From contig JAVCDE010000024.1 in NCBI GenBank assembly GCA_030765185.1, forward strand, positions 123,538 to 187,537: a stretch of 64,000 nucleotides of DNA. The letters are read 5' to 3'. Below are positions 47,544 to 64,000 of the stretch, piece by piece. The translations under genes and the position numbers were made by a program. This stretch comes from Candidatus Aceula meridiana. GTDB lineage: Bacteria; Omnitrophota; Gorgyraeia; Zapsychrales; Aceulaceae. Every line of letters starts with the position of its first letter. The first letter of the stretch is position 1. The notes under the pieces are model-generated. The model worked only from the letters and a program-made list of their open reading frames with translations. It made no database searches and had not been told where the DNA came from.

Positions 47544-49643
47544 TTAGCTATTATCCATCAGCTGCCTCACTGCTTGGGCAACCTCTTGAGGGGTTATCTG
47601 TGTCATGCAGTCATGCGTATGCAAGGGGCATCGTGATTGATAACAATGCATGCAATCTAATTTGCGATAAAGAATTCTTGATTTCTTTGATGGTGGCAAA
47701 TGGCGCAAAGGATCTGTCGGCCCAAAGAAGGCAACAAAAGGCGTTTCCATAGCTGCCGCGATATGCATCGATGCCGAATCCGGTGTTACATATACATGAC
47801 ATTTTCTAATAAGAGCTGCCAGTTGCAAAACATTTGTTTTTCCGATAAGGTCTGCCGGCTTGGCTTTTGTTTTCTTTAAAAGCTCGCGAGCGAGAATTTT
47901 ATCTTTTTCAACACCTGTTAAGACGACACGAATGTTTTGTGCAGCCAAAATATCACAGAGCTCAGCCACATAATCTAGCGGCCACCTTTTGCTTTCCCAT
48001 CGTGATGAGGCGGCTAAATTGATACCCACCAGTTGCGTATTTTTAGCGATCCACTGACTTTCAAAAAGTTGCTGAATATATTTTTCGTCTTCTTTGGATG
48101 GCCAAAGCTCAAGATGTTCTTGCCCATTTGTTGTAATACCTAAAAGATTTAAAACTCGAAATTGGTGCGCAACCGCAGGTATTGGCGCGTGGTCATCAGA
48201 AACACTGTTAGACAGTAAGGCCCCCCATTTTGTATTTTTATATCCATAGCGTTCATGGCACAGACTTAAAAAAGCCAGAAGATGACTTTTCCTATTGTTC
48301 TGGAAATCAATAACTTTATCAAACCGATAGCGCCGCAACTTCTTAATGATCTTTCCAAACCCCCAAAAGCCTTTGTGTTTATGTACTGGATCATAGACAA
48401 TAACTTCATCTAAATAAGGGCACCTCTGCAAAATTTCACGAAAATCCTTTTTAACCAAACAAGAAATCTTGGCCAACGGAAAACGCTCGCGTAACGCCTT
48501 TAAAGACGGCATAATAAGAATAACATCACCTAAGGCACTTAATTTTATAACTAAAATTTTTATATGCTTTAAGACCTCTCCATAAACTTCCAGCGTCTGG
48601 CTCGCCATATGGTCCAAGGTATAATGGGATAAAATCTTTTCTTTGGCATTTTCAACCAAGCGGCGTGCTAGCACCTTGTCTTCTAAAACACGTACAACCG
48701 CCTCGGCCATCTTTTCGGGATGTTTAGGCTCAACTAAAATCCCAGTTTGCTCATCTTCAATAATTTCAACGACGCCACCTACTCTTGCCGCAACAACCGG
48801 CACTCCGGCTGCCTGGGCTTCAACGATAACTCTACCAAAAGACTCAGGGACAACAGATGAGAAAACTAAAACATCCGTCTCAGCTAAGAGTTCAGGAATA
48901 TCTTTGCGGCTTCCTAAGAATTCAACTTTATCGGCTAGCCCTAAACGACGAACAAGAACTTTAAGGCCTTCACGATACGATATTTTTTCTTCCGGCGCAT
49001 CGCCTATAATCCAAATCTTAACATATGGTAAAGTACGCACGACACGTGCCATTGCCCTTAAAAAATACTCATGCCCTTTCAAAGGAGTAATGCGTCCAAT
49101 AATCGAGATGGTATATTCAGACTTTGAAAAACTTTCAGAACGTGGGATATTAAATTTACGCAAGTCCACGCTACGCGGAATGCAGCGAATGTTTTCTGCG
49201 GCGACATGAAAATCTTCTATCATGTGTCTGCCAATAACTTTGCTCGGAACAATAATAAGTTTGCCCCAAGCCATAACACGTGAAAAAAAATGTTTCGAAT
49301 AATACCCGTGACACGTTGTGACAAAAGGTGTCTTGATTTTTTGGCAAGCGAAAAATGCAATCCACCCCGGAACACGAGACCGAGCGTGGACAATATCAAC
49401 TTTCTCTTGTTGTAGGATTTTGATAAGACGGTGTGTGCACCAAATAGCCGTCAAAATATTCTTGCGGTGAGCAGGAAGCTCAATATGCCTCGCCCCGGCC
49501 TCCTCCAAATCAACAACAAGTTCCCCTCCATTTGAGATAACAAGCGCCTGATGGCCATGCTCAACTAAGTAACGGGCTAAATCAACCGTTCCGGTCTCTA
49601 CTCCACCTACGCGTAACTCCGGAAGAATTTGCAGTACTCTCAT
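47544..49643 (-). CDS. Fused GT4 glycosyltransferase (N-terminal ~360 aa) + GT9 heptosyltransferase (C-terminal ~340 aa)
   Basis: N-terminal half carries GT4 motifs (PESFGRVIVEAQAAGVPVVAARVGG). From about nt 48566 downward a GT9 domain follows (KILVIKLSALGDVILIMPSLKAL … TPDSASMHIAAAMETPFVAFFGPTDP). Confidence 0.8.
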   Translation of the reverse strand: MRVLQILPELRVGGVETGTVDLARYLVEHGHQALVISNGGELVVDLEEAGARHIELPAHRKNILTAIWCTHRLIKILQQEKVDIVHARSRVPGWIAFFACQKIKTPFVTTCHGYYSKHFFSRVMAWGKLIIVPSKVIGRHMIEDFHVAAENIRCIPRSVDLRKFNIPRSESFSKSEYTISIIGRITPLKGHEYFLRAMARVVRTLPYVKIWIIGDAPEEKISYREGLKVLVRRLGLADKVEFLGSRKDIPELLAETDVLVFSSVVPESFGRVIVEAQAAGVPVVAARVGGVVEIIEDEQTGILVEPKHPEKMAEAVVRVLEDKVLARRLVENAKEKILSHYTLDHMASQTLEVYGEVLKHIKILVIKLSALGDVILIMPSLKALRERFPLAKISCLVKKDFREILQRCPYLDEVIVYDPVHKHKGFWGFGKIIKKLRRYRFDKVIDFQNNRKSHLLAFLSLCHERYGYKNTKWGALLSNSVSDDHAPIPAVAHQFRVLNLLGITTNGQEHLELWPSKEDEKYIQQLFESQWIAKNTQLVGINLAASSRWESKRWPLDYVAELCDILAAQNIRVVLTGVEKDKILARELLKKTKAKPADLIGKTNVLQLAALIRKCHVYVTPDSASMHIAAAMETPFVAFFGPTDPLRHLPPSKKSRILYRKLDCMHCYQSRCPLHTHDCMTQITPQEVAQAVRQLMDNS

Positions 49644-51622
49644 ATAATGCCTTGAGTTGCCTTCAAAAGAATTTCTTGATCTTCAATAGGTTTTAAAACG
49701 ACATTGTCTTTTGCTAATTGATTAATAGCAGTGCCGATATCTGTTTCCGTGCTTACAAAAACATGCTCTTGGAATTTAAGATTTTCGACAAAAATCTCAT
49801 GTTTGGTTTTTATTTTTTTATTTTTTTGTTGCGCTAAAAAGACAATAACCTTTTTTCCAGAGCTTACAGCCTCAGAGACCATCGAGATGCTGTCTGATGA
49901 AGCAATAATGATGTCACAAAGACCTAAGATGCCCCCTACGGCTTCAGGAACATTATTATGTTTAGCGTTAATAAAAAGCTCGCATGGCGGATAACTTTTA
50001 AGTTCTCTTTCTAGAATCTCGTCAACATCCTTCGGCGTCCGGCGCGATGTGGTTAAAAGAATTCTCATGTCTAAAGCTTGTGCAGTATTTTTAAGCTGAC
50101 GCACCAACTCCACAGCCTGAGAGTAGGTAATGGTATGATTTTTTGACTCCCCGCCCAGTAAAATGCCAATCGACAATTTCTTTTTTGCTTTAAGATTCGT
50201 AAATTTTGCTAAAAGCGTCTGCGTTTGATTTTTTAAATATTGCGGATTAATTAAATTTGGCGCAAGTTTAGTAAAAACAACATTCTTTCGCTTGCCTGAA
50301 GAATAGCCCCTATCATGTTCCGGCAAAATAGCCAGATCAAAACGATTCATCCCCAAAGCACCTGGCCGCTGAATAACAATACTCTTTGCTCGGTAATCCT
50401 GCGACAAGAAATAATTCACTCCAGAGGTCGAAGATCCGCAGGAGATAACAAAATCACCTTTGACACTCATAACCTCTAAGAAAGATTTACGCTTTAAAAA
50501 CCATTTTAAGTAACGCAGTCTTCCTTGAGAAACTTTTTCATGTGTTAAAAAACTTAATGTCGAAAAAATACGCCGACGTTTTTCATCCTTAAATTCAACG
50601 TCAATAACCTGTAGTTCAGACTGAATACCTCGCTCCGTCAATGCCTCGGCAATTCCCTGAGCAACTGCCTGCGACTGGCGCAGATGTCCGGTGCGCTTAT
50701 CATTTAGGATAACAACGGTTGATTCCTTAGAATATTTCCAAATTTTATAAAGCCACATATATTGCGAAGGATATCGCGTGATACACTCCTCCATTGTTTT
50801 CGTAATATTCTCAAGATTTGTCCGGACGTCTTGATTGATGTCCTGTGTCTTAACAAGATCTAATGCCGGCTGAATAATAAGCCGGTGATAAGGCCCTTTC
50901 TCGTTAACAATGGTGCAAAAATAAATAGGGACATCAAATTTTAATCCAATTTTAATCGCGCCTACAGACATCGAGGAAAGGCGTCCAAAAAATTTGACCA
51001 ACTCTCCTGTCTTGCCCCCTTGGTCAACGACAATACCAACGATCTCATTTTTTTTCAGTGTCTTCAAAAAATCCCTAGCGCCCGAACCCGATGTAGAAAT
51101 CAAGCCCGCTCCCGCACTTTGCCGATAAGAATTTAAAAGGTCGTTAAGCCGCGAATGCCTTGCCTGTGGATTCACCATAACCCGATAGGGATGGCCTAGC
51201 AAAGACTCCATAAAATTACAAAGCTCCCAGCTACCAAAATGCATAGCAAGCAATATAACACCCTTGCCTTTTTTGATGGCTTCGTCAACATATTCTTTCC
51301 CTTCAACTTTGATATATTTATGTGGGTCTGTTATCGGCAGGCGTAAAAGTTCAATAAAATGCTGTCCAAAGTTTCGGTACAGTTCACGTAGAATACGTTT
51401 GATCTCGCTCGTCTTCTTTGTTTTTGCAAAAGCAATCTTAAGGTTTGAATACGCAATCTTCTTATGCTTAGCGTCAAGATAATACCCTAAAAGTCCGACG
51501 AAGCGTCCGAAGCCAATTGCCGTGGAAAGCGGTAACGCGCGGACAATTGTTGCAAAAAACTTAACAGCCCAATAAGCAGAAAATTCGTTTTTCAATCTCT
51601 TCCTTTCCTTTAGTAATATCAA
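49640..51622 (-). CDS. Fusion of lipid A late acyltransferase (LpxL/HtrB family) with an ELM1/DUF1022 (COG3660)-like GT-B domain
   Basis: N-terminal ~300 aa: FSAYWAVKFF…, HFGSWE (H-x4-E acyltransferase motif). C-terminal ~360 aa begins VVILNDKRTGHLRQSQAVAQGIAEAL, reminiscent of the ELM1-family N-terminus. The start may be an internal Met, since it overlaps the lpxK 3-prime end by 62 nt. Confidence 0.7.
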   Translation of the reverse strand: MILLKERKRLKNEFSAYWAVKFFATIVRALPLSTAIGFGRFVGLLGYYLDAKHKKIAYSNLKIAFAKTKKTSEIKRILRELYRNFGQHFIELLRLPITDPHKYIKVEGKEYVDEAIKKGKGVILLAMHFGSWELCNFMESLLGHPYRVMVNPQARHSRLNDLLNSYRQSAGAGLISTSGSGARDFLKTLKKNEIVGIVVDQGGKTGELVKFFGRLSSMSVGAIKIGLKFDVPIYFCTIVNEKGPYHRLIIQPALDLVKTQDINQDVRTNLENITKTMEECITRYPSQYMWLYKIWKYSKESTVVILNDKRTGHLRQSQAVAQGIAEALTERGIQSELQVIDVEFKDEKRRRIFSTLSFLTHEKVSQGRLRYLKWFLKRKSFLEVMSVKGDFVISCGSSTSGVNYFLSQDYRAKSIVIQRPGALGMNRFDLAILPEHDRGYSSGKRKNVVFTKLAPNLINPQYLKNQTQTLLAKFTNLKAKKKLSIGILLGGESKNHTITYSQAVELVRQLKNTAQALDMRILLTTSRRTPKDVDEILERELKSYPPCELFINAKHNNVPEAVGGILGLCDIIIASSDSISMVSEAVSSGKKVIVFLAQQKNKKIKTKHEIFVENLKFQEHVFVSTETDIGTAINQLAKDNVVLKPIEDQEILLKATQGII

Positions 51623-58477: not shown

Positions 58478-58527
58478 GGCGTCAATCAAAGCAAAACCCC
58501 TCTGTCAGGACGAACTTGACAAAGGGG
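58478..58527 (-). terminator. Rho-independent terminator downstream of the giant PEP-utilising-enzyme gene
   Basis: Minus RNA CCCCUUUGUCA-AGUUCGUCC-UGACAGAGGGG (11-bp stem, one G·U/mismatch) followed by UUUUGCUUUGAUU. Confidence 0.7.
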
Positions 58528-58553
58528 TCTGAGAGACTATTAAATACCTATCT

Positions 58554-61500
58554 TTAATTTAAATAGCTTATTTGCCTTGGCTCATCCGCTAAAAGCTCTA
58601 CAGTTTCACTTTCGATATTCTCATCTTTCACGCTATATCCTAAAAGCATCGGAAGGTTAGTAACGATTGTATAATTAAGAATCACCGGCACCAACCCGTT
58701 GATATTAATATTCTCAAGATCCTGTAACTTCATTGGAAGCGACACACCGTTTTCATCGCGCTTAATCTGTAAGTCAAACTTATCCTTGTTAAAGTCAATA
58801 CCACCAGGAGATGAAACTGCTATTTTTCCAGCTGTAGGGGGGGGAATAGTGCTATCCGAAGCAGGGACATGATGGGTTTTTAAGGAGATTCCAGCGTTCG
58901 CAACCGAATTTTTAATCATCTGAACAGGTCTTTTTAAATTTTCTTGCATCTCGCTGCTCTTATAAAAATCAATAACATGCTGATTCTTTCCACTAGCAAT
59001 ATCTGCTGCCCAATATCCCTGAGCCAAACGTGTTTTATCTAAATCAATAAAGGAAAGCTTCCCAGCATCGATAAATTCATTTAAAAAAAGATAGTTGCCC
59101 GGCCAAGCTGTATTAATTCCTAAAGGAAGAGGCGTTTTCTCAATATCAATGCCTACTTCCTTTATAACTTTGAGGGCCTCTTTTAAATGTTCAGGAATTT
59201 TCACGCTGTTAAACTGGATCGCAGGCTGATACCCTTCTTCAATAAGATTCTTAATGACTTCTAGTTCAATCTTAAAAAGTTGCCTAGTGTCGCCTTCGCG
59301 GATAAGTGCATCTAGCCCGGCTACGCCTAAAGGAGGATTCACTTCTTCCGGTGAAAAAACACGCCCACCTCTTAATCCTGAAAAATCATCACTTTCCATA
59401 TCAGAAGTTTCAAAAACAAAAGGCTCGCCCGCCTTAACATAATGCTTAATATAATTCGTAAGCATAATCTGATAGGCCTCTGTGGCATCATTGGCCTGCA
59501 GCTTCTTAATGATTGATTCAATCTCGTCGATAACAAAGTCCCCGAGCTTTTCCTTCCTTGCATCGGAAGAAAGCTCATCGTAGGCGTAAAAAGCTAAAGG
59601 ATGAACTTTTATAAACTTATAAAAATCACTGACTTTAATTGAGTTTCCTAAATCTTCAACTTTAGGCTCTCTGGCCTCCTGCGCAATAACGCCAGTAATT
59701 TTACTTTCTTTAGCCGGAACTTGAATCTCAACTTTAACTTCTTGCTTGTAAATTCTTTGATTTAGAAAATCAACGGTAATCATTTGCTTATCAGGCAAAC
59801 GATTAAAATAATCAAGTTGACCTTGATTAGAAAAAATAACCGGAACTCCTAATTCTTTAATTTTCTCAACAATTTCTTGAGAGATATCTTTCGTTGTTAC
59901 AACAGCTCCTAAACGGCTAATCTGGTCTTTTATCTTGTCATCTGAAAAATCAATGAGAATTTCAGGATCTAAAGAAACAAAATCTCCGATATAGGTCTCT
60001 TCAAAATCCCCTTGTTTCTTGACATGAAAAAATAACCGGGTTGCCGCACCACGCTTTAAATCACTTTCAAAATCTGATATTACAACAGAATTAACAACAG
60101 GGTCTTTGACAACACCATGCTTAAGAGTTGCGGCTGCTGAGCGGATAATAGTTTTTTCGGTCCCTAAATAATCGGTGCCGGCATAACCGCCGGTTGATCC
60201 TAACATCATCAAAATTTCTTCGGCAGTCTCGGGATCTTTTTCGACAAGATTAACAATGGCCTGGCCGCAGAGCCCGCACTTTATATTATATTTTTTTGCA
60301 ATGTTAACTACATGGCGAATCGATTCAATAACAAAAGGATGGGCCTCGTTCATCAGGTGTTTCATGTCGTGATTATCACGGTCAGCGCCCATGGTCGTCT
60401 GAGTTAAATCATTGGTTCCAAATGAGAAAAAGCTAGCGCGCTTGAAACTCTTTACGTCAAAATTTTCTTTGAACCATTTTGTAATTTCTTTTTGATGTCG
60501 GTTTAAAATTTTTGCAAATTCATCCGCCTGGATAACATTGCTGGGAAGCTCGATCATCTGCCCGACCTCGCGGATATAAACCACTTCTCCGGCCTCTTTG
60601 CTGAAAGTTTTTTCTTCTTCTTCTAAAATTGTCAAAAGCTCATCTAGCTCCTGCGGTGTCGCGACAAATGGAAACATAAAGCCAAGATTCTTATATCCTT
60701 GTGCAATCTGGCGCAACAGCATACGGATTTCTTCCCTTAAAATAATTTGATTTTCTTTTCGCAAAAGCCATCGTGCTCCACGCTCACCGATCATGGTGGC
60801 TGGTTCAGGATTTGGGTCAAACATTTTTGAGCCAATAAGACTTCTAGCTTCATTTTTCTTAAAATCAATGCTGCGATAAACAACCGTGTTATCTTGCTGA
60901 CTGTTCGCGGCTGCCATTAAGCTAACAGCCCCACCATGAACAGCTGCAAAAAACTCATCATAAGTTAGATATCCTTTAAGACGCTCAGAAAGCTCCTTAA
61001 TAACTTTTATTTCTCCGTCTGTGCGAAGAGAGTCATGCTGAATTGTCCAGAGGTCTTTCTTGCCTGTCTCCGATAAGCTATTAACAAATCCCTCAGGGTT
61101 CCCCTTGTCAAAACTGTCCATAAAACTCTGGATAACCTTTTCAGCGCGAGACATTGGAACAGGCACTTCCTCTCTTCTTGATTTTTCTCTTCTGGCAAGT
61201 TCATCTTCAAACCGGTGAACAGCATCTTTTTCATCTTTATTGAGACCTTCATAATATTTTGTTGCCTGACGATAATCCGTATTCATCATCAAATAGGTGT
61301 AAATAAGAAAATTATCGTAGGCCACACCTGCGCGGGGATTAATATTTTCTTCTCCATAAACAAACTCGGCCCGCATCAAAGCAACACCTGAAAATCCTGG
61401 ATATTGCGCCATCTTTGACATGGTGAGCATAGGGTGAGGCATGCCCATGATATATCCTACTTTGGTATAAACTTTAGGCAAGCGGCTAATATCAATTTTA

Positions 61501-63917
61501 ATTTCCCGCCTGCTAATTGGCAAACTTCCCGCATAAATGGTTCCATTCCCACTGTTTTCATTAACATTTGCATCAACGGTTACAATATTTCCGCTTTTGT
61601 TAAGATAACTTTTAATTTGGGAGGCCTTGCGTTCACCAACTGTCTGAGAAAGCTTATCAAGCCAGGATATAACCCCTACAACCGTGGCAATGCCAAGCTC
61701 TCGAGAAACAACAGCCGCATGAGACGTCGCGCCGCCAACGTCGGCTATGATGCCCACAACATTCTCATGTTTCATAACCGGAAGATAATCCGGCGTGGTT
61801 TCGCGCGTACGGATAATAATTTTTGTTTTGGCAGCTTTTTTCTTAATATCTTCAAACTGTCCAACTAAACCTTTGGCAGGGTCGATAACATAAATCTCTC
61901 CCGTGAATGCATTGCGAGTGGGAATTCCGCTAACCAAAAGTTCACCATTCTCTAAATCTGTTAACTGCCCACGACTATTCTTTGCTTTATTGTGTTTTTC
62001 CTGAGAAGATTCTACATCCTTGGTTTTAATATAAGTATAATCAATAGCAATTTTTTGAGGGTCCGAGACATCCACTTCAGCATTAGAAGGTCGCCTTTGA
62101 ACTGTAATAACTGTATTGGGTTTCTGAAGATTACGACCAACAACCCCTTCCATATCAAGAATATTTTCATATCCTTCTGCTTTACGATAAGCTTCTTTGG
62201 CAATAGCAACAATCTGAGAATCTGTTGCCGCAAAAATATCTCTCCGACTTGGCTCAACATCCGTAAAAACAGTCTTTGTCTTTGCATCTTTAAGACTTTC
62301 TTTAATAACATGCGCTAACTTGTTAAGCTGATGGCGATTAAATCCAAAAACTCTTTGAATCAAACTAGATTGATCTTCATGAATTCGTACCGCGTCTGTT
62401 CTATCGACATCCTCCTTAACAAGGCTATTTAAAACATTATAAAAAATGGATATATCAGACTCTGAAATTTCAAATTTCTCAGCTAACACTCGGGAATTCT
62501 GGCCTTGGGGTTTAACAAGCTCTATATAATCATTCAAGGCTTCCTCAGAAATCTCTAAAAGCCTCATCAAAGGCTCTTTGTAAACAGCCTGAATCATTTT
62601 TGTACCTAGCTGACGGGAAAGAATATTAACTCTAAGCTCTCCACCTTCTTCAAACATGTGGACCAAATAGCTATCAGGCGTAACAACCCCTTGAACAATA
62701 GATTCGCCAAGGTTGTAATTGGTTGTAATAGTACAGGTGCGGCCTTTATTGAAATATTCTTTCCGAGGAATTTTCTGAAAATCCTTTCCTGTCCACCCGG
62801 TGTTCAAATCAGCCCCAAAAAGAACGAATGACACTTGTGCGTCTGCCATCGGCATAATCGTAACGCCCATAGAAATATTCTTAACATTAATAAAATCTTC
62901 TCTTGCCTGCTCAACAATTTTAACTTCTTCTTTAAAATTATTTCTCTGAAAAACTTCAGAAAGCCTTAAAGAAGAAATAATTTTAATATCCCTTGTCTCC
63001 AAAGCCTTAGCCGCAAGCTTATCATCATCATTCTTACTTTGGCCTAAAGTTTTAATTACCTTCTGAACATTATTTCTTGAAAGAAGTTTTCCGAAAGCGA
63101 TATAGACCATCATGCCGTCACGATAGTCAATAGCCCGATCCGTATATAGAGAAGCAACATCATCTCGCCAACGGTTAACAGCAGTCTCTGCGTCTGGCAC
63201 GCCAAGATATGTGTCATGCTGACCGGCGCTTGCGCCTAAATTAATTCCGGCCATCTCAGGAATCTCTTCTAGCTTAATATCTTCTGCACGCCCGGAACTG
63301 CGAACAGCCATTTCTTTAATTTTTGCTTCATAAGCCAAAGACTCATAAGAAAACTTTATCATTTCTTGAATGTGATCCGGGATAGGCGTATTTTTAATCC
63401 TCGCTCTAATTTCTGCACCAATCTTTTCTCTTTGTTTTTCGTCTGAAGAATCTAAATTTCTTATACGCTCATAGACAAAGTTCAAAAGCTCAGGGTCAGA
63501 CTCAAGAAATTGATCAGCAGCTGTTGTTGTTCCAGAAAAACTACGAAAATTGTTTTCCGGGTCTTTCCCCCACATAATTGCCAACTGATAAGATTTACCG
63601 CCAACGAGTCTTTTGCCTAAATCTTCCGGAAGCTGAGCGATTTCAAAATCTCGCGCAATCGGCTTTTTGACAAGTTTTTCAAAAAGCTTTTCAGCCTCTT
63701 CCCTTGACAAAATCTTAATAGGAAACTGAAGGTCATCAGGAACTTTAAGGCTACTGCTGATCTTATCTGTCATGGTGGCCTTGCCGCTTCTTTCGGCACC
63801 CTCCCCGTGTTCCGTAAAAAGTGTCTTAACTTTTACAGTTGATGATCCTTTTTCGCCATCGATAGCAGTATAGCCTTCTTGGCTGAGGACGTGTTGTTTC
63901 TTGATATCTGTCTTCAT
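58554..63917 (-). CDS. Giant (at least 1787 aa) PEP synthase / pyruvate-phosphate dikinase-superfamily protein with an intact PPDK_N–His-swivel–TIM-barrel core, followed by a second, catalytically degenerate swivel + TIM-barrel module and a novel C-terminal tail
   Basis: PPDK_N ATP-grasp (VGGKSYQLA; VRSSGRAEDI…; GESIVQGVVTPDSY). Swivel domain with catalytic His (GGATSHAAVVSRELGIATVVG, His codon 61719-61721). PEP-utilizers_C TIM barrel (FFSFGTNDLTQ, NIKCGLCGQA with the Cys codon at 60276-60278). Then a His-less swivel-like segment (GAVVTTKDISQEIVEKIKELGVPVIFS) and a second TIM-like segment lacking the NDL/Cys motifs. The reading frame has no stop between 63918 and 64000, so the true start may lie outside the window. 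Confidence 0.8.
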   Translation of the reverse strand: MKTDIKKQHVLSQEGYTAIDGEKGSSTVKVKTLFTEHGEGAERSGKATMTDKISSSLKVPDDLQFPIKILSREEAEKLFEKLVKKPIARDFEIAQLPEDLGKRLVGGKSYQLAIMWGKDPENNFRSFSGTTTAADQFLESDPELLNFVYERIRNLDSSDEKQREKIGAEIRARIKNTPIPDHIQEMIKFSYESLAYEAKIKEMAVRSSGRAEDIKLEEIPEMAGINLGASAGQHDTYLGVPDAETAVNRWRDDVASLYTDRAIDYRDGMMVYIAFGKLLSRNNVQKVIKTLGQSKNDDDKLAAKALETRDIKIISSLRLSEVFQRNNFKEEVKIVEQAREDFINVKNISMGVTIMPMADAQVSFVLFGADLNTGWTGKDFQKIPRKEYFNKGRTCTITTNYNLGESIVQGVVTPDSYLVHMFEEGGELRVNILSRQLGTKMIQAVYKEPLMRLLEISEEALNDYIELVKPQGQNSRVLAEKFEISESDISIFYNVLNSLVKEDVDRTDAVRIHEDQSSLIQRVFGFNRHQLNKLAHVIKESLKDAKTKTVFTDVEPSRRDIFAATDSQIVAIAKEAYRKAEGYENILDMEGVVGRNLQKPNTVITVQRRPSNAEVDVSDPQKIAIDYTYIKTKDVESSQEKHNKAKNSRGQLTDLENGELLVSGIPTRNAFTGEIYVIDPAKGLVGQFEDIKKKAAKTKIIIRTRETTPDYLPVMKHENVVGIIADVGGATSHAAVVSRELGIATVVGVISWLDKLSQTVGERKASQIKSYLNKSGNIVTVDANVNENSGNGTIYAGSLPISRREIKIDISRLPKVYTKVGYIMGMPHPMLTMSKMAQYPGFSGVALMRAEFVYGEENINPRAGVAYDNFLIYTYLMMNTDYRQATKYYEGLNKDEKDAVHRFEDELARREKSRREEVPVPMSRAEKVIQSFMDSFDKGNPEGFVNSLSETGKKDLWTIQHDSLRTDGEIKVIKELSERLKGYLTYDEFFAAVHGGAVSLMAAANSQQDNTVVYRSIDFKKNEARSLIGSKMFDPNPEPATMIGERGARWLLRKENQIILREEIRMLLRQIAQGYKNLGFMFPFVATPQELDELLTILEEEEKTFSKEAGEVVYIREVGQMIELPSNVIQADEFAKILNRHQKEITKWFKENFDVKSFKRASFFSFGTNDLTQTTMGADRDNHDMKHLMNEAHPFVIESIRHVVNIAKKYNIKCGLCGQAIVNLVEKDPETAEEILMMLGSTGGYAGTDYLGTEKTIIRSAAATLKHGVVKDPVVNSVVISDFESDLKRGAATRLFFHVKKQGDFEETYIGDFVSLDPEILIDFSDDKIKDQISRLGAVVTTKDISQEIVEKIKELGVPVIFSNQGQLDYFNRLPDKQMITVDFLNQRIYKQEVKVEIQVPAKESKITGVIAQEAREPKVEDLGNSIKVSDFYKFIKVHPLAFYAYDELSSDARKEKLGDFVIDEIESIIKKLQANDATEAYQIMLTNYIKHYVKAGEPFVFETSDMESDDFSGLRGGRVFSPEEVNPPLGVAGLDALIREGDTRQLFKIELEVIKNLIEEGYQPAIQFNSVKIPEHLKEALKVIKEVGIDIEKTPLPLGINTAWPGNYLFLNEFIDAGKLSFIDLDKTRLAQGYWAADIASGKNQHVIDFYKSSEMQENLKRPVQMIKNSVANAGISLKTHHVPASDSTIPPPTAGKIAVSSPGGIDFNKDKFDLQIKRDENGVSLPMKLQDLENININGLVPVILNYTIVTNLPMLLGYSVKDENIESETVELLADEPRQISYLN

Positions 63918-64000
63918 GGCAAGGTTAGCACCACCAGAGAAGTACTTTCTAGGGATGTTGCGTTTGACGTTGGTATCGTATTCAACCTTTATATAGCTGT

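Follow-up and report, generated by a model that had tools for sequence, protein, structure and literature searches.

What kind of enzyme is encoded at the 3′ end of the window (the whole 64,000-nt stretch of Candidatus Aceula meridiana DNA that was analysed), where a gene for a PEP synthase (PpsA)-type protein is much longer than its family requires? A sequence-only reading had described a 1787-aa open reading frame (ORF) in which a complete enzyme with PpsA domain order is followed by a second, catalytically dead swivel and barrel. We asked what the additional sequence is and what it might do.

The gene and the full-length protein

The 1787-aa ORF is real (58554..63917, minus strand, as are all features below), with no stop codon or change of frame within the window. 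Its frame is open up to the window edge (stop-to-stop 58557-63998, 1814 codons), and the suspicion that the protein extends further proved right: database protein P0001 (Ca. Aceula meridiana, Omnitrophota), 100% identical to the window protein, has 2132 aa. The window holds the C-terminal 85% of this protein. The missing 318 aa, encoded by ~954 nt of gene past the edge, comprise a Sec-type signal peptide and the rest of a ~310-aa module, here called the N-cap. The last 27 codons of the N-cap (…SYIKVEYDTNVKRNIPRKYFSGGANLA; 63918..64000) are in the frame that stays open to the edge and match the N-cap consensus …YNYIKEDYD…IPRKYFSGG. Translation does not start at the ATG at 63917, which encodes the Met of GGANLAMKTD, residue 346 in P0001. 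This Met begins a linker (ORF aa 1-95; 63633..63917) with 29% mean pairwise identity among orthologs. What had been described as a ~90-aa N-terminal extension is actually ~440 aa long, 318 of these beyond the window.

A complete PEP synthase-type core

By its domains and motifs, the core of the 2132-aa protein is a complete pyruvate,water-dikinase-type enzyme, with an ATP-grasp domain, a phospho-His swivel and a PEP/pyruvate TIM barrel. Pfam searches of the ORF matched PPDK_N once at aa 103-614 (130 bits), the PEP-utilizers swivel once at aa 700-783 (58 bits) and PEP-utilizers_C with 161 bits split over three stretches, in agreement with the three modules in PpsA order and the intact GGATSHAAV (aa 728-736) and KCGLCGQ (aa 1213-1219) motifs that had been read from the sequence. 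Both motifs, together with VVYRSID, IGERGAR, IELPSN and GTNDLTQ, align with catalytic positions of solved PEP synthases.

The ATP-grasp nucleotide-binding domain (PPDK_N, PF01326; aa 96-685, 61863..63632) was placed by its Pfam match and by alignment to 9dae, and is longer than that of solved PpsA by two insertions, of ~85 and ~100 aa. Its ATP-site motifs are LVGGKSYQL, VRSSGRAED, NLGESIVQG and VQRRP, of which GGK, VRSS..AED, GES..G and QRRP align to 9dae. Mean identity in this domain was 52% among 12 orthologs, with 109 invariant residues. The catalytic swivel, or mobile, domain (PF00391; aa 690-795, 61533..61850) had 69% mean identity among orthologs; its phospho-His733 lies within GGATSHAAV (61710-61736), which aligns to GGMTSHAAIVSRELGI of 9dae (GGMTSHAAI).

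The catalytic PEP/pyruvate TIM barrel (PF02896; aa 805-1260, 60138..61505) was delimited by its three Pfam stretches and by alignment to PpsA and Enzyme I structures. It contains VVYRSID (60864-60884), IGERGAR (60771-60791), IELPSN (60537-60554), GTNDLTQ (60399-60419) and KCGLCGQ (60261-60281), and so keeps two Arg, the Glu, the Asn-Asp pair and the Cys proton donor. Its key-residue signature is R-D-R, and 173 residues were invariant among orthologs (65% mean identity). The insertion previously noted in this barrel is present and helical, and measures ~130 rather than ~120 aa. The usual NPxLG loop is replaced by ATMIG.

The best NCBIfam matches of the protein are PEP synthase models. The whole protein scored below both equivalog cutoffs (TIGR01418, 341.4 v 739.75; NF005057, 374.2 v 598), which we attribute to insertions and extra modules that split the match into six stretches. 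With the full catalytic residue set conserved, the live module very likely interconverts pyruvate plus ATP and PEP plus AMP plus Pi through a phospho-His intermediate. Because of the ATMIG loop and the 130-aa insertion, pyruvate and PEP are assumed rather than demonstrated substrates.

The sequence-only reading had suggested a new type of phosphotransfer enzyme, for example a dikinase for a non-pyruvate substrate with the dead module as regulator or scaffold. In a stronger form of this proposal, the extra module would offer such a substrate a second catalytic or binding site. The ATMIG loop and the insertion make the live barrel divergent, whole-protein scores fall under all NCBIfam equivalog cutoffs, and two of the weaker NCBIfam matches, rifampicin phosphotransferase and PigC, use other acceptors, all of which would suit such an enzyme. 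However, we saw no sign of a non-pyruvate substrate. The live module has lost none of the PpsA catalytic residues, the proton-donating Cys among those kept; its best matches are to PEP synthase models and structures; and the second module lacks the His and all barrel catalytic residues in all orthologs. We consider the stronger form highly improbable.

A degenerate second swivel and barrel

The dead second swivel and barrel proposed to lie behind the complete enzyme was borne out by profile and structure comparisons. Built from 14 homologs, a profile covering aa 1261-1681 matched the PEP synthases 8a8e (E = 3.8e-21), 2ols (2.3e-13) and 9dae (6.8e-11), and the alignments to 2ols and 9dae were contiguous across swivel and barrel. 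Searched against 1.84 billion proteins, the same profile found 455, including ordinary ~750-aa PpsA at ~1e-18. Local hhalign of aa ~1500-1671 to the protein's own first barrel gave a probability of 91-93% (E~1e-6). PpsA was the best family and structure match for the live and the dead module alike. The expectation of second Pfam hits in the C-terminal segment alone held for PF02896 (24.5 bits v a cutoff of 22.8) and failed for PF00391, which had no match at E ≤ 1 in any of 14 homologs.

The pseudo-swivel (aa 1280-1400, 59718..60080; 39% mean identity) was recognised by hhalign, by the 2ols and 9dae alignments and by Foldseek, where alignments to PPDK spanned ~490 columns. Profile-profile alignment by hhalign to 21 canonical swivels had a probability of 97.2% (E = 3e-11); with the family's own 12 live swivels there was no match (probability 1.4%). 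Within TTKDISQEIVEKIKELGVPVI (59835-59897), an Ile stands in the phospho-His column. The domain keeps the ELG-V-P-V-I helix-strand and the strand ITVDF..…IY.

The pseudo-barrel (aa 1425-1681, 58875..59645) is homologous to the PEP-binding barrel, with YR changed to FE (FVFETSDMESDD), LGxRG to LGVAG (EEVNPPLGVAGLD), IEvP to TAWP (GINTAWPGNYLF) and GTNDL to DKTRL (SFIDLDKTRLAQ). It is shorter than a full PEP-binding domain, ~220 of ~320 residues superposing, and nothing in it aligns to the Cys-bearing end strand. Across the module, His has become Ile, and R, R, E, N and D have become E, A, A, T and R; all 12 of the 12 orthologs are similarly degenerate. In a wider set, nearly all second barrels have their catalytic positions replaced, while first barrels keep R-D-R-E-[ST]-N.

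Conservation and distribution of the second module

By its homology, fold and loss of catalytic residues, the second swivel and barrel is a pseudoenzyme module, an old duplicate maintained by purifying selection. It was present in 12 of 12 orthologs at 39-45% identity, v 29% in the linker, with 29 invariant residues that cluster at the motifs of the former active site; it is on this presence, this better conservation and these invariant residues that we base the case for selection. In a rough neighbour-joining tree, all second barrels formed one clade apart from first and canonical barrels. A recent internal duplication was rejected, since the second module scored 7.6 bits to its own first TIM barrel v E = 1e-16 to 8a8e, and second barrels cluster together.

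These data also bear on two other explanations: that misassembly or a frameshift joined ppsA to a downstream gene and so produced an artefactual long ORF, or that the second module is a functionless decaying relic. The second module is conserved less than the first (39-45% v 65-69%), and one database entry (P0014, 438 aa) begins inside the pseudo-swivel, as a split gene call might. However, an identical continuous architecture recurs in 12 orthologs (45-79% identity, four independent sources) and in many more distant proteins, the frame in the window is unbroken, and the module is conserved above the linkers. The frameshift artefact that had been kept as an alternative is excluded by this recurrence in at least 12 orthologs, which come from NCBI, JGI, ENA and Logan assemblies, one being present on 30 contigs. 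Together, the artefact and relic explanations retain only the slightest probability.

The tandem is not unique to the Ca. Aceula meridiana protein. A metagenome profile search found the tandem dead barrel in dozens of clusters at 50% identity, most of them from Omnitrophota, some having the large end modules and others lacking them, annotated just as PEP synthase. Tandem barrels also occurred in shorter proteins without caps, some of them without a signal peptide. In the orthologs, a boundary motif, D[SAT]AM, flanks the entire block from ATP-grasp to pseudo-barrel and never falls between the live barrel and the dead module; from this placement we take the block to be one unit. Database labels such as 'PEP synthase' and 'putative PEP-binding protein' thus conceal a tandem dead module, one that adds a pseudoenzyme class to a well-studied superfamily.

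Comparison with known families

The protein has the domain order and all the catalytic motifs of PpsA (EC 2.7.9.2; TIGR01418, NF005057; 2OLS, 8A8E, 9DAE). Unlike PpsA, it is 2.7 times longer at full length, has ~315 aa of insertions in its live domains and a second, dead swivel and barrel, adds a predicted signal peptide, N-cap and C-cap, and scores under the equivalog cutoffs. It is not a member of PPDK (TIGR01828, 81.6 v a cutoff of 843.45). Its match to PTS Enzyme I (TIGR01417, 120.9 v 341.7) is confined to the barrel, and an ATP-grasp domain takes the place of the HPr-binding domain of Enzyme I. Neither PPDK nor Enzyme I is known to have a tandem dead module. The earlier remark that a duplicated barrel is absent from characterised families agrees with our family models and literature search: the tandem live and dead arrangement was found in none of PpsA, PPDK, Enzyme I and rifampicin phosphotransferase, nor in the literature searched, which yielded nothing relevant on tandem or pseudo PEP-synthase barrels.

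Receptor protein tyrosine phosphatases, which belong to the pseudoenzyme literature (PMC10211241; PTPRU preprint 10.1101/805119), offer a parallel. In these proteins, an active D1 domain is followed in one chain by an inactive homologous D2, which has lost catalytic residues, is nevertheless conserved and is thought to be a regulator or scaffold. Fold and chemistry are unrelated, so the analogy is one of working and not of homology.

PPDK-type domains within large Omnitrophota proteins have already been reported (bioRxiv 10.1101/2023.11.21.568195). The 'archaeovorin' giants and multi-enzyme long proteins (bioRxiv 10.1101/2023.11.21.568195; 10.64898/2026.06.07.730766) belong to the same phylum, have signal peptides and embed normally cytoplasmic sugar-metabolism enzymes and PPDK-type domains; their authors note the same localisation puzzle that arises below. 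In contrast to the present protein of 2132 aa with no TM helix past the signal peptide, those proteins have 10,000 to 147,000 aa and many TM helices. The archaeovorin type (West-Roberts et al. [quoted passage not shown] In neither of the two preprints did we find mention of the N-cap, the C-cap, D[SAT]AM or the tandem dead barrel.

Role of the second module

Our preferred reading of the whole protein, which we hold somewhat more probable than its negation, combines a working PpsA-type core, a dead partner module in cis and a predicted export frame. The dead module would catalyse nothing and would instead be built in as a partner for the live enzyme, most likely replacing, within one chain, the barrel-barrel dimer. 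It is established that PpsA, PPDK and Enzyme I are dimers joined via their barrels. Of the structures matched here, 5jvj, a PPDK dimer, and 8a8e and 9dae, 24-mer barrel cores, are examples. Because these enzymes dimerise by their barrels, a contact in cis is the most economical role for a second, dead barrel. The dead barrel would supply the barrel-barrel contact, and the dead swivel would be parked on the former active-site face.

Several observations weigh on this role. Structure predictions covered single modules, so the pseudo-dimer is pure inference, and the dead barrel appears incomplete. Its most conserved residues lie on the former active-site face, a position no less suited to the docking of a ligand or swivel than to a dimer interface.

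The dead swivel and barrel might instead be a sensor, its remodelled active site binding a small ligand, whether a metabolite resembling PEP or pyruvate or one of a new kind, or capturing the live phospho-His domain, with allosteric regulation as the outcome. The positions invariant in the dead module coincide exactly with the old active-site motifs, although the residues conserved there are new ones (T244/D246, E265-N267-P268-L270-G271-G274, N342-T343-A344-W345-P346-G347-N348-Y349), and the NPPLG phosphate-binding loop is better kept in the dead than in the live barrel. However, the dead barrel has lost the two Arg that bind phosphate, the Glu that binds metal and the Asn-Asp pair. Opposite charges have partly been substituted (Glu for Arg; Arg or Lys for Asn-Asp), and a salt bridge between them could simply occupy the pocket. 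We have no ligand to propose, and second-barrel residues vary widely across the broader family, which argues against a single conserved ligand. We regard a sensor as possible, though on the unlikely side. The conserved tandem is a natural experiment on the need for barrel dimers in PEP-utilising enzymes and is relevant, too, to the steering of the swivelling His domain.

Signal peptide and terminal modules

The signal peptide and most of the N-cap lie outside the window, and the frame that they form with the C-cap, invisible to the sequence-only reading, alters the biological picture. The signal peptide has n, h and c regions and a conserved A|Q site in all full-length orthologs, by inspection and hydropathy only; hydropathy showed no other strong hydrophobic segment or TM helix beyond it. 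The N-cap follows, P0001 aa 1-345 comprising signal peptide and N-cap (HMM, 490 bits). It is a module without known relatives, with the consensus LPxPGxM…NP[FL]xF…WVNLSPYE…IPRKYFSGG, and a literature search for a conserved Omnitrophota N-terminal module returned nothing relevant. The C-cap, ~70 aa at the end of the protein (aa 1701-1770, GGIDFNKDKFDLQIKRDENGVSLPMKLQDLENININGLVPVILNYTIV…, 58608..58817; HMM, 79 bits), has the consensus GGIDxN…LQIKRDGxGxPLP…GLxPVI and is shared by unrelated Omnitrophota proteins (P0013, which has a UDPGP cargo, P0016, P0017 and P0054). Neither Pfam nor NCBIfam has a family that matches it. We considered whether the C-cap is a known sorting signal (T9SS CTD, PEP-CTERM-type or RTX) and rejected this, as there was no family match and no terminal TM helix.

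The frame of signal peptide, N-cap and C-cap would be expected to send the protein out of the cytoplasm. Neither the periplasm nor the cell exterior is known to contain ATP, so predicted Sec export is hard to reconcile with an ATP-dependent enzyme. If the prediction is right, this is the real puzzle of the protein.

Caps occurred in at least 1150 Omnitrophota protein clusters, and the sampled cargo of capped proteins included PGK, GAPDH, enolase and transketolase. One speculative reading is that signal peptide, N-cap, C-cap and D[SAT]AM form an undescribed, phylum-wide Omnitrophota delivery or assembly system that places ATP-dependent central-carbon enzymes outside the producer's cytoplasm, the dead swivel and barrel enabling a dikinase that is normally a dimer to be exported and to function as one chain. 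Its cargo would be PpsA, PGK, GAPDH, enolase, transketolase and UDP-sugar enzymes, and its destination might be a metabolic layer at the surface or in the periplasm, or else the cells of prey or host. We think this distinctly doubtful. With one recognisable enzyme and a clear signal peptide, the 2132-aa protein is a small, tractable member of the Omnitrophota long-protein world. As a single expressible protein, it makes testable both whether 'cytoplasmic' enzymes are exported by predatory or parasitic nanobacteria and what the shared modules do.

Gene neighbourhood and downstream signals

The neighbours had been said to give no pathway hint, and the same was true of orthologs: the surroundings of P0012 and P0006 consist of unrelated housekeeping genes, without an operon clue. 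The terminator ascribed to the gene was upheld by RNA folding. A terminator-like, G+C-rich hairpin followed by UUUUGCUUUG (58494..58530) lies 24 nt past the stop codon (58554-58556), with a dG of -30.8 kcal/mol (z -3.94; 0/200 shuffles as stable); a simple terminator scan missed it. Downstream of the hairpin, a motif match gave a promoter-like site for aroK, TTGACG-17-TACAAT (58485-58457, minus strand).

Gene extent and full-length protein

The large gene at one end of the window encodes a PpsA subfamily member with a tandem pseudo-swivel and pseudo-barrel, embedded here in an undescribed Omnitrophota frame of signal peptide, N-cap and C-cap (our names for its N- and C-terminal modules). It is a genuine minus-strand ORF, 58554..63917, with 1787 aa counted from its first ATG, and its reading frame stays open up to the window edge (58557-63998 from stop to stop, 1814 codons). 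Protein search returned P0001 (2132 aa, annotated 'putative PEP-binding protein'), which is 100% identical to the ORF product and comes from an Omnitrophota MAG, Candidatus Aceula meridiana. Thus, the first 318 residues lie outside the window, and 63917 marks an internal ATG; the sequence-only reading had supposed that the protein might be longer. The search also gave 11 orthologs (45-79% identity, 2068-3029 aa, covering 89-95% of the query) from NCBI, JGI, ENA and Logan assemblies, all Omnitrophota/Omnitrophica wherever the source gives a name.

A probably live dikinase followed by a dead swivel and barrel

Pfam placed PPDK_N at ORF aa 103-614, the PEP-utilizers swivel at aa 700-783 and PEP-utilizers_C in three stretches reaching ~aa 1260. 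When aligned with PEP synthases of known structure, the protein showed a complete catalytic set, comprising GGATSHAAV (His733), VVYRSID, IGERGAR, IELPSN, GTNDLTQ and CGLCGQ, with the ATP-grasp motifs likewise intact; the three PEP-utilising modules in PpsA order, with intact GGATSHAAV and KCGLCGQ, had been recognised correctly at first reading. The top NCBIfam matches were two PEP synthase models, both under their equivalog cutoffs (374 v 598 and 341 v 739.75). Compared with PEP synthase 9dae, the ATP-grasp is longer by ~85 and ~100 residues and the live barrel by ~130, close to the ~120-aa insertion proposed earlier. Conservation among 12 orthologs was highest in the swivel (69% mean identity) and barrel (65%). 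ORF residues 1 to ~1260 are thus probably an active PpsA-type dikinase.

The ~420 residues after this barrel (ORF aa 1261-1681), which had no Pfam match when the whole protein was scanned, recur in conserved form in every ortholog and are a second, catalytically dead swivel and barrel. The degenerate second copy suspected from sequence was borne out by profile-profile, structure, library, isolated-Pfam and swivel comparisons. The dead barrel matched the protein's own live barrel with 91-93% probability in profile-profile comparison, pairing FVFETSDMESDD…EEVNPPLGVAGLD…GINTAWPGN…SFIDLDKTRLAQ on the dead side with VVYRSIDFKKNE…PEPATMIGERGAR…GQMIELPSN…SFFSFGTNDLTQ, in the same order, on the live side. 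The second-module profile (alignment A1, built from 14 homologs) matched the PEP synthase chains 8a8e (E=3.8e-21), 2ols (2.3e-13) and 9dae (6.8e-11), the latter two continuously from swivel through barrel, and found 455 of 1.84 billion representative proteins, among them PpsA of the ordinary size (~750 aa) with E-values near 1e-18. The pseudo-swivel matched 21 canonical swivels with 97.2% probability (E=3e-11, 102 columns). Of the two Pfam families looked for in the C-terminal segment, PF02896 passed when the segment was scanned alone (24.5 bits v a gathering score of 22.8) and was matched in 8 of the 14 homologs, but PF00391 was matched in none of the 14.

The phospho-His position is Ile in the pseudo-swivel, within TTKDISQEIVEKIKELGVPVI, the very string singled out at first reading, and the barrel catalytic positions are E, A, A, T and R in place of R, R, E, N and D. 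The Cys-bearing end of the barrel has no aligned counterpart in the dead module. The second module is therefore a dead and somewhat shortened copy.

The live barrel is without the usual E-E-N-P-x-L-G-x-R-G loop sequence, reading PEPATMIGERGAR (60771-60791), and the dead barrel retains EEVNPPLGVAG (59310-59348). Canonical PpsA barrels are closer in sequence to the dead copy than to the live barrel.

Spread and possible working of the tandem architecture

The order ATP-grasp, swivel, barrel, pseudo-swivel, pseudo-barrel runs unbroken through all 12 orthologs and many more distant proteins, which rules out a frameshift artefact joining two genes. Proteins of 1100-1500 aa in the representative search consist of PpsA plus the second barrel only, without caps; some of these short forms have a signal peptide (P0049, P0029, P0038, P0048, P0037 and P0027) and others lack one (P0032 and P0034, the latter labelled Ca. 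Desulforudis). The forms with a signal peptide have in common 'DNLRP' after the cleavage region and a ~250-aa C-terminal extension. By a table of key residues, first barrels retain R-D-R-E-[ST]-N, and second barrels are degenerate almost everywhere. All second barrels form a single clade in a rough neighbour-joining tree (no support values, alignment fitted to the second-barrel profile), which suggests that they derive from one old duplication. The architecture is not known from characterised families and was at first thought a possible new type of phosphotransfer enzyme; many proteins share it, and their source labels read 'phosphoenolpyruvate synthase' or 'pyruvate, water dikinase'. No description of the tandem dead barrel turned up in a literature search.

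The live part would cycle its phospho-His by swivelling between ATP and pyruvate/PEP, with the dead part as a non-catalytic partner. EI, PPDK and PpsA all rely on barrel-barrel association, and by this analogy we favour the dead module as an in-cis stand-in for the dimer contact, which would make the single chain self-sufficient. The main rival suggested is a regulatory or ligand-binding role, in line with the location of the dead module's invariant residues at the old active-site motifs. There was no evidence for the new phosphotransfer chemistry first envisaged.

Signal peptide, caps and boundary motif

At its N-terminus P0001 carries a typical Sec signal peptide, in which a basic n-region and a hydrophobic core precede GFAQA|L. 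Such a peptide is common to all full-length orthologs, the 'A|Q' site recurs, and no further strong hydrophobic segments were found in these proteins. The signal peptide predicts export, which would be senseless for an ATP-dependent enzyme unless the destination has ATP or the N-terminus is an anchor.

The N-cap follows (~310 aa; with the signal peptide, P0001 aa 1-345), reading LPAPGTM…NPFQFNFF…WVNLSPYE…IPRKYFSGG; its last 27 residues are those encoded inside the window ahead of the ATG (63918-64000, minus strand). It has no relative in Pfam, in PDB or by fold. It occurs, almost always in Omnitrophota, in at least 1150 protein clusters, a few of them labelled otherwise. In GTDB species genomes it was located at a minimum of 598 places, and a genome has several copies; loci kept had record titles naming Omnitrophota/Omnitrophica MAGs, or MAGs labelled 'Planctomycetales' or 'bacterium'. 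The majority of N-cap genes exceed 1300 codons. Their cargo by Pfam, in 51 sampled regions, included PGK (4), enolase, GAPDH, transketolase, malate synthase, acyl-CoA dehydrogenase, PPDK_N, methyltransferases, response regulators, and ankyrin and HEAT repeats; P0013 carries a UDP-sugar pyrophosphorylase.

The C-cap (~70 aa; 58608-58817, minus strand) reads GGIDFN…LQIKRDENGVSLP…GLVPVI, within the general pattern GGID[FLM]N…LQIKRDGxGxPLP…GLxPVI. It also ends P0013, P0016, P0017 and P0054, accompanies the N-cap in proteins that are not otherwise related, and matched no known sorting-signal family. No other ORF in the 64-kb window has either cap.

At module boundaries of N-cap proteins, D[SAT]AM[LIV] was observed 54 times in 103,624 residues, where composition predicts 2.3 occurrences, without flanking conservation, in orthologs P0003-P0010, in P0013 and P0054, and in N-cap loci L010-L082. 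In the PpsA orthologs it brackets the entire block of enzyme plus dead module and never falls inside it; in the window protein a degenerate 'NLAM' after the N-cap (63917-63928) is its sole trace. The motif may serve in processing or be typical of linkers. The tandem pseudoenzyme is well founded and moderately surprising; the cap system with glycolytic enzymes among its cargo, outlined here, is the more unexpected lead. Two preprints describe Omnitrophota giant proteins with signal peptides and embedded sugar-metabolism/PPDK-type domains, and the localisation puzzle that these pose (bioRxiv 10.1101/2023.11.21.568195; 10.64898/2026.06.07.730766); we found no mention of the N-cap, C-cap, boundary motif or tandem dead barrel in either preprint.

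Genomic context

The dikinase gene stands alone. After its stop lies a strong terminator-like hairpin (58494-58530, minus strand; dG -30.8 kcal/mol, z -3.9), which a consensus terminator scan did not report. Beyond it come a promoter-like site and then further minus-strand genes, namely aroK, dprA, topA, one for a xerC/D-type recombinase and those for lipid A/LPS, in agreement with the terminator and aroK/dprA position read from the sequence. Ortholog neighbourhoods were entirely different.

The minus strand carries 53 of the 54 window ORFs that reach 150 aa; the remaining one, on the plus strand, overlaps a longer minus-strand ORF. GC skew is negative across the whole window (-0.08 to -0.24), and no tRNA genes were found in the 64 kb. 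Two fused envelope-biosynthesis genes (47544-51622) adjoin lpxK and kdtA: a 660-aa ORF joining a lipid A acyltransferase domain to an ELM1-like domain, and a 699-aa ORF joining a GT4-type glycosyltransferase to a GT9 heptosyltransferase. Given these fused genes beside lpxK and kdtA, the host organism appears to make LPS and to be diderm.
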